From a virus: DNA of 40,988 nt. The stretch lies in the UHGV virus genome UHGV-0200626; one strand, 5' to 3'. A program made the position numbers and the translations under genes. Every line of letters starts with the position of its first letter. Position 1 is the first letter of the stretch. The notes under the pieces are model-generated. The model made no database searches, had not been told where the DNA came from, and was given only the letters and a program-made list of their open reading frames with translations. This document shows positions 5,313 through 39,708 of this stretch, in pieces.

Positions 5313-6044
5313 TTAGTAATCAACTACAGACCACCAGAAAATTCTTCCGATGATCTCAATGTCACTTAGATTCTTTTCTTCTTGTGGGTATTCCAGTGAG
5401 TTAAAGCTTCTAATGCTTACCTTGTCAGGCCCTGTTCGAAAGAGAATCTTAATGCGTTTCCAACCGTTCTCGTTAATGGCGTAAATCTTTCCGTCAACTA
5501 TTTTCTTATCGTTGGTGTTAACAGCAACTGTTGTTCCATCAGGAATGTTTGGCTCCATGCTGTTGCCACGAGCCGGAAAACAAACAACCCCGCTTCCATC
5601 ACTGTTCGCGCCAACTCTGCGAAGGGTTGATTTGGAAAAGCGCAACATAAAGCCGTTGTGATCTTCATCAATCACCCGACCATCCCCGCATGCAAACTCA
5701 ATATCTTTAAGGTAAGGAATTTCAACTTCATCACCTCTTAAAGGCGTTCCTCCATCCCATGGGTCCAAACATCCCCACGTGCTTTCATGAGGAATAGAAG
5801 ATTTTGGATCATAAGGTTCAACTCCCTCATCACGCATTGGCCCAGTTCCATCGGAAAGCCATTCCGTACGAACTCCAAGCACTTTTGATATTTCAAAAAG
5901 TTTGCGCGTATTGCGTGTTTTTCCAGACGTAAGTTTCCAGACGCTTGGCTGAGACATGCCAACAGCATTGCCAAGAGAAGCCTGAGTAAACCCAGCCTGA
6001 TCCATCGCGTATGTAAGCCTTTGAGAAAAAGTATCTAGTTTCAT
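5313..6044 (-). CDS. cI: CI-like repressor (N-terminal HTH, C-terminal S24 LexA-like peptidase domain)
   Basis: 243 aa; HTH-like segment (GFTQASLGNAVGMSQPSVWKL), C-terminal GNSMEP serine motif and a downstream Lys typical of S24 autopeptidases; divergent from a cro-like gene. Confidence 0.8.
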   Translation of the reverse strand: MKLDTFSQRLTYAMDQAGFTQASLGNAVGMSQPSVWKLTSGKTRNTRKLFEISKVLGVRTEWLSDGTGPMRDEGVEPYDPKSSIPHESTWGCLDPWDGGTPLRGDEVEIPYLKDIEFACGDGRVIDEDHNGFMLRFSKSTLRRVGANSDGSGVVCFPARGNSMEPNIPDGTTVAVNTNDKKIVDGKIYAINENGWKRIKILFRTGPDKVSIRSFNSLEYPQEEKNLSDIEIIGRIFWWSVVDY

Positions 6045-6055
6045 TCGGACAACCT

Positions 6056-6112
6056 ATAGCTACAGCTATTATTAGTCAAATATCTAAAGCTATTTACTTT
6101 CTGAATAGCTTT
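6056..6112. promoter_or_regulatory. OR-like operator region between cI and cro
   Basis: ATAGCT-AC-AGCTAT (6056..6069) and AAAGCTATT-N9-AATAGCTTT (6086..6112) inverted repeats in the 108 bp divergent intergenic region. Confidence 0.5.
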
Positions 6113-6152
6113 GGCTATTATTCTTGTTGTGAATTCAGCAGGAGTTATTTTT

Positions 6153-6383
6153 ATGGTCAACAAGGCTATTAAAGCGGCTATTGACTCAGTAGGAAGTCAG
6201 CAAAAGTTAGCTGATGCCTGCGGTGTTAAGCAGCCGTCTGTATGGGCTTGGTTGCATGGGAAGAAAAGGGTATCCGCTAAAAATGCCAAGCGCATTGAAA
6301 TGGCTACCAATGGAAGCATCCCTGCATACCTGATTCGCCCTGATTTATCCGATTTGTTCCCCAATCCGAACAAAGCAGCTTAA
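6153..6383 (+). CDS. cro: Cro-like HTH regulator
   Basis: 76 aa from ATG 6153 with AGGAG upstream; HTH-like segment QQKLADACGVKQPSVWAWLHGKK; divergent from cI. Confidence 0.6.
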   Translation: MVNKAIKAAIDSVGSQQKLADACGVKQPSVWAWLHGKKRVSAKNAKRIEMATNGSIPAYLIRPDLSDLFPNPNKAA

Positions 6384-6502
6384 TAAAGCAAATTTTTATA
6401 CCGAACGGCCCGGTATACGGTCGGGTGCCCGGCGTGGTCAAGGATGACTGTCAATGGTGCACGATAAAAACCCAAATTATTTACCTATGGAGATAGTAAG
6501 AA

Positions 6503-6799
6503 ATGACACAAACAAGTTACAGCAAGCCAACACAGCGAGAAATTGATCGCGCTGAAACTGATTTACTCATCAACCTGTCAACGCTTACCCAGCGCGGTTT
6601 GGCAAAGATGATTGGCTGTCATGAATCGAAGATAAGCAGAACGGACTGGAGATTTATTGCTTCGGTCTTGTGTGCTTTCGGAATGGCATCAGACATCAGT
6701 CCGATTAGCAGGGCTTTTAAGTATGCATTGGATGGAATCACAAAGAAAAAATCCCCGGCTGCCACCGAGGATTCTGAGCAAATTGATATGCAATTCTGA
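6503..6799 (+). CDS. cII: CII transcriptional activator
   Basis: 98 aa; C-terminus KKKSPAATEDSEQIDMQF matches lambda CII KKRPAATERSEQIQMEF; correct position after cro. Confidence 0.8.
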   Translation: MTQTSYSKPTQREIDRAETDLLINLSTLTQRGLAKMIGCHESKISRTDWRFIASVLCAFGMASDISPISRAFKYALDGITKKKSPAATEDSEQIDMQF

Positions 6800-6831
6800 G
6801 GGAATTACTGGATCAATCCACAGGAGTAATT

Positions 6832-7476
6832 ATGACATACGAAAATGACAAATTCCAGGTTCTGAAGAGCATGAAGGTGCCAGATGATTTTAAATCAAAT
6901 GGCTTTGTTTATGTGCTTTCTAATGAGTGCATGCCAGGAATTTATAAGATTGGGATGACTAAGCATTCACCAGAAGTTAGGGCTAAAGAAATTTCAGCCT
7001 CTACTGGCGTTCCTAAGCCATTTAAGGTGATAGCAGCCTTTCATTCAAATAATCCCGCATCAGATGAAAAACTCATTCATAAAGCCTTTGCAAAAGAGAG
7101 GCTTAGTGATAATCGAGAGTTTTTCAAGCTTGAAGATAATGAGCTTTCTGAATCTCTAAATGAAATAAGGGCGCTGGTTGGCCCTGAAAGAAATGGCGAG
7201 ACGGCAGAATACGCAATTTACGACTCATTCATTTCTTTTCGCCATGAAAATGAGCTTGATCTTAATGAGGAGCTTATAGAGCAAGGTCTGGGTAGTGTAG
7301 TTGGTCATCTTCCTGCGGTGAAAAATTTCCTTATTCGCGCCGGAATTGATTACGCGAAGCAACTGATAAGCAAATATAACTCATCGATAGTTATTAATAC
7401 AGATGGCAGTGTGGTGATGGTTAAGTCTCTTGAAGCCCAATGCTTTGATGCGGAGGTTGGAAATGAGCCTGGCTGA
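6832..7476 (+). CDS. T5orf172 (GIY-YIG-like) domain protein, accessory gene
   Basis: 214 aa; N-terminal GFVYVLSN...GIYKIGMTKHSPEVRAKEIS...PFKV...EKLIHKAFAKERL...REFFKL fits the T5orf172 pattern recalled from memory; AGGAG 5 nt upstream of ATG; inserted between cII and O. Confidence 0.55.
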   Translation: MTYENDKFQVLKSMKVPDDFKSNGFVYVLSNECMPGIYKIGMTKHSPEVRAKEISASTGVPKPFKVIAAFHSNNPASDEKLIHKAFAKERLSDNREFFKLEDNELSESLNEIRALVGPERNGETAEYAIYDSFISFRHENELDLNEELIEQGLGSVVGHLPAVKNFLIRAGIDYAKQLISKYNSSIVINTDGSVVMVKSLEAQCFDAEVGNEPG

Positions 7477-8305
7477 AGTATTTTACCTGTCGAAGAGTGA
7501 ACCTGTTGAACAGGAGCGAAGAGTGGCTGATATCGATGATGGTTACACCAGATTCGCTAACGAGCTGCTGGAAGCTATCGCAAGTGCTGATTTAACCGCT
7601 CGCCAGTTGAAAGTTATGCTGGCCTACGTCCGGAAAACATATGGATTCAATAAGAAAACAGATCGAATAGCCGATGAGCAAATTGCTCAGTTAACAGGAC
7701 TGTCAAGGCAGAATGTTAACAAGGCTAAAAAAGAACTGATTTCAATGAATTGCCTGTTTATGGATGGAAATCAAATCGGTGTAAACAGTGAGGTATCTGC
7801 GTGGCAATTCAGCAAGTGTCTCCAAGTTAGCAACTTTGTCTCGAAGTTAGAGACAAAAAATGTCTCCAAATTAGAGACACTCAATGTCTCGAAGTTAGAG
7901 ACACACAAAAGACATTCTTTAAAGACAAAAGAAAATATTAATAAACCCCCTATATCCCCCAAAAAAGTTTCTCAGAAGTTCGACCCGCTAGAAACAGAGT
8001 TGCCTGATTGGTTATCAGCAGAAACATGGTTGTCGTGGGTTACCTATCGCAAGGAGATAGGTAAGTCGATCAAGTCTAAGCAAAGTGTCACTCAGGCTAT
8101 CAACGTTCTAAGCAGAAGTCTGGAGAAGGGATATACACCTGAAGAAATTATAAACCAGAGCATCGCCAGTGGTTGGCAGGGGATTTTTGAACCCAAGACT
8201 CCAAAGGGGAAATCTCAACCGAGGCCGCAGCAGCGAGCTATGCAGGAAAACTTTGCCGCCAAAGATTACGGGCAAACTGAAATGCCTTCATGGGCGCAGG
8301 AGTGA
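7463..8305 (+). CDS. O: Replication initiator, lambda O-like
   Basis: N-terminal region (RRVADIDDGYTRFANELLEAIASADLTARQLKVMLAYVRKTYGFNKKTDRIAD) parallels lambda O; GGAGGT upstream of ATG 7463; contains iterons. Confidence 0.8.
   Translation: MSLAEVFYLSKSEPVEQERRVADIDDGYTRFANELLEAIASADLTARQLKVMLAYVRKTYGFNKKTDRIADEQIAQLTGLSRQNVNKAKKELISMNCLFMDGNQIGVNSEVSAWQFSKCLQVSNFVSKLETKNVSKLETLNVSKLETHKRHSLKTKENINKPPISPKKVSQKFDPLETELPDWLSAETWLSWVTYRKEIGKSIKSKQSVTQAINVLSRSLEKGYTPEEIINQSIASGWQGIFEPKTPKGKSQPRPQQRAMQENFAAKDYGQTEMPSWAQE
7817..7903. repeat. Origin iterons inside the O gene
   Basis: Three 19 bp inverted-repeat units (7837..7855, 7861..7879, 7885..7903) plus a degenerate copy at 7817..7835, followed by an AT-rich stretch to about 7975; they encode the repeated peptide VSKLET. 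Confidence 0.65.
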
Positions 8306-8307
8306 AT

Positions 8308-9201
8308 ATGAATACGACAAATGGTTACAATCTGGCACTGCAAAGGCAACTTGTAGACTCAAAAATCAATGACATTTCTGATCTGAAACAGAAACTTGAG
8401 TTTAGCAAAATTGGATCAGCATCAGATGGAATGTCAGTTACCAGCACAGTGGAAGAGTGCGAGAAACACGGTAAATATACTTCCTATGAGAAATATCTGA
8501 CCATCTCAGGAAAAAGAATTACTTCAAGTAAATCTGAGTGCCCACAGTGCCTTGAGGAGAAAATTCGTAAGAAAGAGATTGAACGTGAGCAGGCAGAACA
8601 AAGAGCAAGACAATCAAAAATTGAATATTTGTTGAATTCTCTCAATATTCCAGAGAGGTTCAAAAATTGCACTCTTCAGAATTATGAGCCTGTTAACGAT
8701 GATGCAAAGCGAGTTCTTAAGGTATGCCAGGCATATGCCAGTAAGTGGCCTGAACGCCTTCAGAAAGGTGGCGGACTGGTCATGTGTGGTAAGCCTGGAA
8801 CTGGAAAGAACCACCTTGCACTGGCTATCGCTAGGCACGCCATTATCGAGCATCAAAGCTCTGTGATATTTACCACTGCGTTGAAAATTGCCAGAGAGTA
8901 CAAATCAACATGGTCTAAGGCCGCAACCAGAACTGAAGAAGAAGTCATTAGGCAATTTACGCATCCTGACTTGTTAATAATCGATGAGGTTGGCGTGCAG
9001 TTCGGCAGTGATGCTGAAAAGCTAATCATGTTCGAAATTATCAACACCAGATATGAATACATGAAGCCAACAATCCTGATTAGTAATCAGAGCAAAGATG
9101 AACTTTCGGCATTCATTGGTGAGCGTGTTATTGACAGGATGAATGATGGCGGAGGGTGCACTCTTGCGTTTACATGGGATAGTTACAGGAGCAGATCGTG
9201 A
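8308..9201 (+). CDS. DnaC/IstB-like AAA+ helicase loader
   Basis: Walker A GKPGTGKNHLALAI and Walker B LLIIDEVG; ATG 8308 follows CAGGAG and overlaps the O stop. Confidence 0.8.
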   Translation: MNTTNGYNLALQRQLVDSKINDISDLKQKLEFSKIGSASDGMSVTSTVEECEKHGKYTSYEKYLTISGKRITSSKSECPQCLEEKIRKKEIEREQAEQRARQSKIEYLLNSLNIPERFKNCTLQNYEPVNDDAKRVLKVCQAYASKWPERLQKGGGLVMCGKPGTGKNHLALAIARHAIIEHQSSVIFTTALKIAREYKSTWSKAATRTEEEVIRQFTHPDLLIIDEVGVQFGSDAEKLIMFEIINTRYEYMKPTILISNQSKDELSAFIGERVIDRMNDGGGCTLAFTWDSYRSRS

Positions 9202-9488
9202 CTGGAAAAGAAATCATCCTGGAATATCTGAAAACTCATGAACAATTCTCCCCACATGAATTAGCACTGATTACCGGAATACCAAATAACAGAATCGCTC
9301 AAGCAGCAAGGCATATGGTGAAACAAGGGCATTTGAGTGTTGTTGAGCGTAAGTGGAAGACGGTTATTTATGCGAAACGCAAAGTGAAGAAGGAGCCAAT
9401 TAAAAGAAATCCAGATGGTACGGGGTGGGTATGTGCAAATCCAATGACGGCGTTTATTAATAGGGCGCTTATGGAGGTAAGGCAATGA
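9198..9488 (+). CDS. ren: Ren-like protein
   Basis: 96 aa; N-terminus MTGKEIILEYLKTHEQF...ITGIPNNRIAQAARHM resembles lambda Ren (MTGKEAIIHYLGTHNSF...) from memory; same position after the replication genes. Confidence 0.45.
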   Translation: MTGKEIILEYLKTHEQFSPHELALITGIPNNRIAQAARHMVKQGHLSVVERKWKTVIYAKRKVKKEPIKRNPDGTGWVCANPMTAFINRALMEVRQ

Positions 9489-37576: not shown

Positions 37577-37651
37577 TGGTGTCCCCTGCAGGAATCGAAC
37601 CTGCAATTAGCCCTTAGGAGGGGCTCGTTATATCCATTTAACTAAGAGGAC
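37577..37651 (-). tRNA. argW: tRNA-Arg (anticodon CCU), argW-like
   Basis: Reverse complement reads GTCCTCTTAGTTAAATGGATATAACGAGCCCCTCCTAAGGGCTAATTGCAGGTTCGATTCCTGCAGGGGACACCA (75 nt) with acceptor stem, CCT anticodon in a CTCCTAA loop, GGTTCGATTCC T-arm and CCA end. Confidence 0.95.
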
Positions 37652-38952: not shown

Positions 38953-39708
38953 ATGAAGCTTCGCCTGTCGGCGCTTGCTCTGGGAACTACGCTTCTGGTG
39001 GGGTGTGCGAGTTCCGGCACAGATCAGCAAGGGCGTTCTGACCCGTTAGAAGGGTTCAACCGCACCATGTACAACTTCAACTTCAATGTATTAGACCCGT
39101 ATATTGTTCGACCGGTCGCTGTCGCCTGGCGTGATTATGTTCCGCAACCGGCGCGTAACGGTTTGAGCAACTTTACTGGCAACCTTGAAGAACCTGCGGT
39201 GATGGTTAACTACTTCTTGCAGGGCGACCCTTATCAGGGGATGGTCCACTTTACCCGCTTTTTCCTGAACACCATTTTGGGGATGGGCGGTTTTATTGAT
39301 GTTGCAGGGATGGCGAACCCGAAACTGCAACGGACTGAACCTCACCGCTTCGGTAGTACGCTTGGTCATTATGGCGTGGGTTATGGGCCTTACGTCCAGT
39401 TACCGTTCTACGGTAGCTTCACGCTGCGTGATGACGGTGGTGATATGGCGGATGGGCTTTACCCGGTTCTTTCCTGGCTGACCTGGCCGATGTCTGTGGG
39501 TAAATGGACGCTTGAAGGGATAGAAACTCGTGCGCAGTTGTTGGATTCCGATGGTCTGCTGCGTCAGTCGTCCGATCCTTATATTATGGTGCGCGAAGCG
39601 TACTTCCAGCGTCATGATTTCATCGCTAATGGCGGCGAACTCAAACCGCAGGAAAATCCGAACGCACAAGCGATTCAGGATGATTTAAAAGATATTGATT
39701 CTGAATAA
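38953..39708 (+). CDS. mlaA: MlaA (VacJ) outer-membrane lipoprotein
   Basis: 251 aa; lipobox LLVGC; sequence recognised as E. coli MlaA from memory. Confidence 0.8.
   Translation: MKLRLSALALGTTLLVGCASSGTDQQGRSDPLEGFNRTMYNFNFNVLDPYIVRPVAVAWRDYVPQPARNGLSNFTGNLEEPAVMVNYFLQGDPYQGMVHFTRFFLNTILGMGGFIDVAGMANPKLQRTEPHRFGSTLGHYGVGYGPYVQLPFYGSFTLRDDGGDMADGLYPVLSWLTWPMSVGKWTLEGIETRAQLLDSDGLLRQSSDPYIMVREAYFQRHDFIANGGELKPQENPNAQAIQDDLKDIDSE

Follow-up and report, generated by a model that had tools for sequence, protein, structure and literature searches.

A probable lambda-type replication origin with its own iteron specificity inside the O-like gene of virus UHGV-0200626

Introduction

Comparative papers on phage ori regions were reportedly published between 1979 and 1984 by Grosschedl and Hobom, by Moore et al., and by Backhaus and Petri. 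Among the closest described systems is that of phage lambda, in which oriλ lies in the central part of gene O and comprises four 18-19-bp imperfect inverted repeats (iterons) together with a 38-bp AT-rich sequence; its minimal unwinding unit consists of a pair of iterons along with the AT-rich tract (PMC3349717; PMC7466680). The number of iterons is not fixed within one specificity type, as the Stx phages 933W and P27 carry six of them and the additional copies lengthen the O protein (PMC7466680). In phi80, four gp15-binding sites are annotated in gene 15 (JX871397).

Here, we analyze a stretch of viral DNA from the UHGV virus genome UHGV-0200626 (40,988 bases, hereafter the window), for which an initial annotation, made from the sequence alone, had proposed that iterons embedded in an O gene mark the replication origin. 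We describe the array, the adjacent AT-rich tract and the initiator gene that contains them, and compare them with relatives and with the described lambdoid systems.

Results

The O-like gene and its genomic context

The O-like gene of the window is 100% identical to the gene annotated as 'O-like replisome organizer' in Escherichia phage CurroJimenez_Bas106 (Bas106) and ~99% identical to the O genes of phages mEpX1 and N7. Its start at 7463 was mapped from the annotated start in the identical Bas106 record, and Pfam was run on the open reading frame starting at 7430. The C-terminal half of O matched no Pfam family. The next gene downstream has a homologue in Bas106 that is annotated as 'DnaC-like helicase loader'.

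7463-8305, + strand: O-like replication initiator gene, 280 aa, containing the putative origin (Pfam PF04492 Phage_rep_O, E = 3.7e-36)
7520-7804, + strand: N-terminal DNA-binding domain of O, Phage_rep_O, residues 20-114 (Pfam match to residues 31-125 of the 7430-start ORF)
8308-9201, + strand: DnaC/IstB-like AAA+ helicase-loader gene, putative partner of the O C-terminal half (Pfam IstB_IS21, E = 1.3e-18; Bac_DnaA, E = 1.7e-7)

Upstream of O lie genes for an S24-type repressor, a Cro-like protein, CII and a GIY-YIG/T5orf172 protein, and this order fits a placement of O in the rightward early (pR) region; a promoter-like site at 6093-6121 comes from a scan that returned fewer sites in the window than in shuffled sequences. 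The GIY-YIG/T5orf172 (MUG113) domain gene (6832-7476, + strand) is located between cII and O and overlaps the start of O by 14 nt. Lambda has only pO/oop at this position, Pocitis76, phi80 and P22 carry no GIY-YIG gene, and the identical gene of an E. coli prophage is named 'GIY-YIG nuclease family protein' in RefSeq. Identity to mEpX1 and N7 starts at window position 7508 (query base 79, with reference to the 7430-7507 region), whereas Bas106 is identical from 7430; hence, the first ~15 codons of O and the GIY-YIG gene belong to a different mosaic segment.

Two further elements were observed away from the array. A strong leftward terminator-like hairpin (6775-6748, - strand; 12 pairs followed by a T-run) is located within cII, at its 3' end. 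Since its position is that at which the lambda oop RNA and the annotated M3 RNA of phi80 terminate, it may mark an oop-like antisense RNA; a simple scan found no leftward promoter matching this hairpin. Searched in full against Rfam at gathering thresholds, the window gave only a tRNA and no match at the putative origin. This tRNA-Arg (anticodon CCT; 37577-37651, - strand) is the sole Rfam or ARAGORN match in the window and, given that the Bas106 genome (39,042 bases) is shorter than the window (40,988 bases), it may be either cargo of the phage or flanking host DNA next to an attachment site.

The iteron array

The array spans 7817-7903 and consists of four 19-bp inverted-repeat units, with start-to-start distances of 20, 24 and 24 bp.

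7817-7835, unstranded: iteron 1, decayed, TGTCTC-CAAGTTA-GCAACT (TGTCTCCAAGTTAGCAACT)
7837-7855, unstranded: iteron 2, TGTCTC-GAAGTTA-GAGACA, palindromic arms exact
7861-7879, unstranded: iteron 3, TGTCTC-CAAATTA-GAGACA, palindromic arms exact
7885-7903, unstranded: iteron 4, TGTCTC-GAAGTTA-GAGACA, arms exact, adjoining the AT-rich tract

The initial annotation had described three near-perfect 19 bp units and a degenerate fourth, spaced about 24 bp apart. Three such units are present, but their 6-bp inverted arms (iterons 2-4) are perfect rather than near-perfect; the spacing of 24 bp holds between these good units, while the first step measures 20 bp; and the degenerate unit is the first, upstream one. 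In this iteron 1 the left arm is intact and three of the six positions of the right arm are mismatched. The decayed form is also kept among close relatives, and in a group of more distant relatives (L053-L056) the array is preceded by a unit that is fully palindromic, AGTCTC-N7-GAGACA, and slightly shifted in register.

The array was rightly placed inside the O coding sequence: it occupies codons 119-147 of the Phage_rep_O gene, in the central part that codes for the linker, and thus begins just after the N-terminal domain, which ends at residue 114. The VSKLET repeat is likewise found in its translation, NFVSKLET-KNVSKLET-LNVSKLET, as part of ...NFVSKLETKNVSKLETLNVSKLETHKRH... within O.

The motif TGTCTC-N7-GAGACA has three exact matches in the 40,988-base window, all of them in the O array, and none in 100 dinucleotide-preserving shuffles. 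With two mismatches allowed, 1.4 matches are expected by chance alone; hence, it is the exactness and the clustering of the units that carry the significance. The 10-base core GTCTC-N7-GAGAC, searched with up to one mismatch, occurs nowhere else in the window, and no second iteron cluster was found there.

DNA-level constraint on the iteron arms

The array was compared with those of 80 IMG/VR loci, whose O N-terminal domains are between 100% and 54% identical to that of the window, and of Hafnia phage Pocitis76. The window and Pocitis76 share 86% DNA identity through the ori region. In the 67-nt array the two differ by 11 substitutions, none of which falls in the 36 arm bases (hypergeometric P = 6.6e-5) and all of which lie in N7 centres or spacers. 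The same pattern is seen among the relatives: the 38 distinct arrays contain 114 units, of which 112-113 (~99%) retain the bases of GTCTC and GAGAC, while the central N7 and the spacers drift. Conservation in the arms extends to third-codon bases, including the 4-fold-degenerate one of the Val codon GTC and that of GAG. These wobble positions within the arms are conserved in 113/114 units, whereas wobble sites outside the arms (unit positions 7, 10, 13 and 22) vary almost freely across the 114 units. The encoded peptide is reduced to VS-x-x-ET among relatives, its middle residues being K/N/S/G/D and L/S/P/I/A/V, proline included. Given that the arm wobble sites stay invariant while peptide, N7 and spacers drift, the constraint lies at the DNA level and, as judged from these alignments, selection on arm symmetry and sequence acts on the DNA and not on the VSKLET peptide.

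The outermost arm positions (1/19) behave differently, with the combinations T/A in 63, A/A in 28, T/T in 10 and A/T in 0 units, and without compensatory change. This argues against a requirement for a hairpin and agrees with a 5-bp core to which a protein binds.

The AT-rich tract and its conserved box

Directly 3' of unit 4, where the initial annotation had noted an AT-rich tract following the iterons, we delimited the following elements:

7904-7946, + strand: AT-rich, A-strand-biased tract, putative DNA-unwinding element (composition, stability, lambda alignment)
7904-7914, + strand: conserved box CACAAAAGACA with which the AT-rich tract begins (comparison of relatives)

The tract (43 nt) has 21% GC and 65% purine; its top strand carries 25 A and 9 T. 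When 40-mers are ranked by instability, the least stable one of the tract takes place 2/3300 in the early-right region (6001-9300) and belongs to the top 0.2% across the window; the stability minimum is strong locally, but not the lowest in the whole window. The box CACAAAAGA is present in 64/64 distinct ori regions of relatives, lambda included, and also in P22 gene 18, mEp043 and Salfasec13b, and it is degenerate in phi80. It recurs with at least five different iteron specificities and with three kinds of partner for helicase delivery, a retention that suggests it may be a sequence-specific element.

The tract is followed at 7946-7960 by CCCCCTATATCCCCC, in which C5 is directly repeated and which codes for the Pro-rich peptide PPISP. 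Many relatives (among L042, L053-L056, L065, L069-L083 and P22) carry a CCCCC-N-GGGGG palindrome at the equivalent place, e.g., TCCCCCAAGGGGGA. This is the position at which lambda carries a GAATTC-centred palindrome to the right of its AT-rich tract.

Co-variation of the initiator with its iterons

We aligned 64 O N-terminal domains, 52 of which belong to proteins of the GTCTC type, and then added those of classical phages. One segment was found to be invariant in 52/52 GTCTC-type O proteins despite an overall divergence to about 59-64% identity:

7703-7738, + strand: codons for O residues 81-92 (SRQNVNKAKKEL), putative iteron-recognition segment (N-domain alignment)

The only positions that are fixed in the GTCTC type and different elsewhere are S81, N84, K90 and S94, all within residues 81-94. 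Moreover, in the seven iteron types compared, each O segment is paired with its own palindrome, and the segment differs in all six non-GTCTC types:

Window, Pocitis76, Pm34: O segment LSRQNVNKAKKEL; iteron GTCTC-N7-GAGAC
mEp043, L067: O segment LPRQKVNKAKNEL; iteron GTCAC-N7-GTGAC
Lambda: O segment LPVKRCNEAKLEL; iteron TCCCTC-N6-GAGGGA
phi80, HK225: O segment LSDTHVSDALKSL; iteron TTCCCG-AAAA-CGGGAA
P22 gene 18: O segment MAPTKCSTAKNEL; iteron GGTAAA...TTTACC
Salfasec13b, L069-L083: O segment IHHTHVC(A/K)AK(R/N)(Q/E)(L/M); iteron TTAGCY-N6-GGCTAA
Gifsy-1: O segment LKVKHVSEAVLSL; iteron, yet another palindrome

This co-variation is the pattern expected if the segment 81-92 reads the iteron, a role that we infer for it from the alignment. 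The segment would presumably be the recognition helix of a winged-helix fold; a search of solved structures with O returned no significant relative, and the similarity to CRP/FNR winged-helix domains was weak and non-significant (E about 0.06).

Modularity, copy number and distribution

Similarity among the relatives breaks just past the AT-rich and C-rich tract. The module made of the GTCTC ori and the N-terminal domain is joined to no fewer than five classes of O C-terminal half, as delimited by single-linkage clustering, in which the window-type class may be heterogeneous. The gene that follows a GTCTC-type O is DnaC/IstB-like (as in the window), lambda-P-like (PF06992) or a DnaB-like helicase (PF00772/PF03796). 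The fusions represent the classical two-domain organization of O, with the origin as the mosaic joint. The window-type C-terminal domain itself (7960-8305) stands before a DnaC-like gene in most loci and before a lambda-P-like gene in L042 and L053-L056; hence, C-terminal class and partner type are not strictly linked.

The number of units also varies between near-identical prophages. Four perfect units, resulting from a 24-bp in-frame gain, are found in three loci (L006, L013 and L020) and a single one in L015, and in L018 the units have been homogenized. Among prophages with O N-terminal domains 89-99% identical to that of the window, the copy-number steps are whole multiples of 24 bp (8 codons). 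A different event is seen in L084 (E. coli O125ac C 236-04A, NZ_CP109924.1 1524336-1525304), where a 68-bp (20+24+24) duplication of the array at locus positions 420-575 comprises units 1-3 and a hybrid of unit 4 and unit 1. This duplication is out of frame, and RefSeq lists the O gene as a frameshifted pseudogene with an internal stop. Within this set of sequences, an intact O tolerates only 24-bp array steps, and not all database copies of this ori type need be functional (e.g., L015 with its single perfect unit, L084 with its frameshifted O).

The GTCTC ori type was found in Bas106, mEpX1, N7, Pocitis76, Morganella phage IME1369_01 and Proteus phage Pm34, and in 47/5426 complete E. coli genomes (~1%), always on the chromosome. 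In the records examined (those of the listed phages and of the E. coli genomes), no origin or iteron feature is annotated under the match. In the literature on mEpX1, CurroJimenez, BASEL and lambdoid mosaicism, we found no description of a GTCTC origin, and the word 'iteron' occurs 0 times in PMC11990801.

Discussion

We consider it highly probable that the region 7817-7946 is the O-dependent theta-replication origin of this phage and that it is of the lambda type, a conclusion that we draw from homology with lambda and from the comparative evidence. The origin reading of the initial annotation is thereby supported at the sequence level by the position of the array, the number and spacing of its units, the adjacent tract, selection on the arms, co-variation with the initiator and the loader-type gene downstream. 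Against it, the right arm of unit 1 has been lost, so that only three full sites are left.

By analogy with lambda (PMC7466680; PMC3349717), dimers of the winged-helix-like N-terminal domain of O would each bind one palindromic iteron via the 81-92 segment, and the O-bound array would form a bent nucleoprotein complex, the O-some. On negatively supercoiled DNA, the O-some would be expected to melt the adjacent AT-rich tract (7904-7946), whereupon the C-terminal half of O may recruit the DnaC/IstB-like AAA+ loader, instead of lambda P, to deliver host DnaB onto the opened strands. Transcription running rightward from the cro-side promoter would provide O and probably also activate the origin in cis, as in lambda.

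Three other explanations of the array were weighed. The iterons could be genuine O-binding sites that serve mainly for control (O titration, handcuffing, autoregulation or exclusion of related phages), with initiation taking place elsewhere. In lambda, plasmid-borne iterons without the AT-rich tract do inhibit repλ phages (PMC3349717), and a change in the number of perfect units (1, 3 or 4) between near-identical prophages would suit a control element. However, the array abuts a conserved, strand-biased AT-rich tract that is homologous to the unwinding region of lambda, and the window offers neither a second iteron cluster nor even a single further core site; we regard a mainly regulatory array, with initiation elsewhere, as improbable. 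It is more improbable still that the repeat has been selected as protein, i.e., as a tandem VSKLET peptide in the O linker in which the symmetry of the DNA is incidental. In line with this explanation, the good units, three in number, repeat every 24 bp (8 codons) and hence in frame, giving a perfect peptide repeat, and copy-number variants with an intact O differ by whole 24-bp units. Yet the synonymous third positions in the arms are invariant (113/114) next to synonymous sites that vary, the peptide is highly variable in its middle residues (K/N/S/G/D and L/S/P/I/A/V), other O lineages hold palindromes at the equivalent place with entirely different peptides, the spacing in lambda is not a multiple of 3, and nothing at the protein level would call for an inverted repeat.

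The palindromes might, on the other hand, act as nucleic-acid structures, namely mRNA hairpins, cruciforms or a leftward terminator-like element. In favour of this, folding of the single strand is far more stable than that of shuffled sequences (z = -6.8), and 7882-7858 on the minus strand was picked out as terminator-like by a simple scan. A low folding energy is, however, the trivial outcome of repeated palindromes; the centroid shows next to no structure, and the frequency of the minimum-energy structure is 0.017. The stems measure merely 6 bp, with loops of 7 nt, and the only variable arm pair (1/19) changes without compensation. Moreover, the arm sequence tracks the helix segment of the initiator, which a structural model does not predict. 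We have thus rejected the hairpin/terminator reading, treating the folding energy as a by-product of repeated palindromes that show no compensatory change, and assign a structural role a very slight probability, the smallest of the three.

With regard to the concept, the locus adds nothing new to the lambda paradigm, and a specialist would not be surprised by it. It does place the probable origin in a group of P22-like/lambdoid phages and prophages (Bas106, mEpX1, N7, Pocitis76 and ~1% of complete E. coli genomes) whose records annotate only the O coding sequence. Furthermore, it sets out the iteron of this incompatibility group by its core, GTCTC-N7-GAGAC, together with the O segment co-varying with it, from which one can predict the phages that would cross-activate each other's origins or titrate each other's initiators.

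Among the other specificity types, the origin of mEp043, Sf101 and SEN22 (GTCAC-N7-GTGAC in the O genes) shares both the architecture and the AT-rich box with the window. It differs by one base per half-site, the central arm base (T in the window, A in mEp043), and by three residues of the helix segment (S81P, N84K, K90N; PRQKVNKAKNEL versus SRQNVNKAKKEL), whose 12 residues are identical apart from these. The O N-terminal domain is only 54-60% identical to that of the window, and the downstream partner in mEp043 is a toprim-domain protein. GTCTC and GTCAC form a compact pair for the study of initiator specificity. We tentatively suggest, as one joint proposal that we consider less probable than not, that the two types are a natural minimal specificity switch which could directly read out the O-iteron recognition code, and that the CACAAAAGA box is a sequence-specific element of the unwinding/loading step, beyond mere AT-richness.

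The annotated gp15 sites of phi80 occupy a position homologous to that of the window array, and the phi80 partner is the P-like gp14. The O homologue of phi80 shares 38% N-domain identity with that of the window, and its helix segment is SDTHVSDALKSL. Unlike in the window, the arms of the phi80 sites (TTCCCG/CGGGAA) are separated by a shorter spacer, the sites are spaced about 21 bp apart and the AT-rich box is degenerate. A phi80 iteron type had been considered for the window, prompted by the label 'replication protein 15' on the homologue in Proteus phage Pm34, and was rejected because the arms of the annotated gp15 sites and the helix segment differ. Bas106, to which the window is most closely related, belongs to Lederbergvirus, the genus of P22. 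Gene 18 of P22 carries repeated palindromes at the place equivalent to the window array, followed by CACAAAAGACA; the arms of P22 (GGTAAA/TTTACC) and of the Salfasec13b-type origins of Lederbergvirus (TTAGCY/GGCTAA) are unlike those of the window, and the partner is a DnaB-like helicase. The iterons of the Stx phages are of lambda specificity, also unlike those of the window, but a variable copy number is common to both, the relatives of the window having 1-4 perfect units.

The comparison with lambda was based on the annotated lambda record. ITN1-4 start at 39034, 39054, 39078 and 39101, in O codons 117-145, and their spacing of 20/24/23 bp stands against 20/24/24 bp in the window; the gene order cI-cro-cII-...-O-partner is common to both. 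The lambda ori arrangement is therefore mirrored, as the initial annotation had stated, in position within O, unit number, spacing and AT-rich tract. An alignment with lambda ori, which had been proposed as a check, pairs the two AT-rich tracts, both of which start with the same CACAAAAGACA (the sequences after the last iteron are ACACAAAAGACACTATTACAAAAGAAAAAAGAAAAGATTATT in lambda and CACACAAAAGACATTCTTTAAAGACAAAAGAAAATATTAATAA in the window), and their composition is similar (23% GC and 70% purine in lambda versus 21% and 65%). The O proteins are 48% identical over residues 4-114 only and unrelated beyond, with the break exactly at the start of the iterons, so that the C-terminal half of the window protein bears no relation to that of lambda. 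The arms are TCCCTC/GAGGGA in lambda and TGTCTC/GAGACA in the window, and the O helix segments (LPVKRCNEAKLEL versus LSRQNVNKAKKEL) differ at 7/13 positions. The partner gene encodes a DnaC/IstB-like AAA+ protein in the window and P in lambda; unit 1 is decayed in the window, unlike in the lambda array; and lambda has a palindrome on the right side of its AT-rich tract that is absent from the window. By its arms and helix segment, the window is not a member of the repλ specificity group (lambda, 434 and the Stx phages; arms TCCCTC...GAGGGA). Since arms and helix segment are unlike those of lambda, phi80 and P22, and since the records examined and the papers on the closest phages are silent on this type, the comparison indicates that the window ori is a new sequence-specificity, distinct from those three, of a well-known kind of origin.
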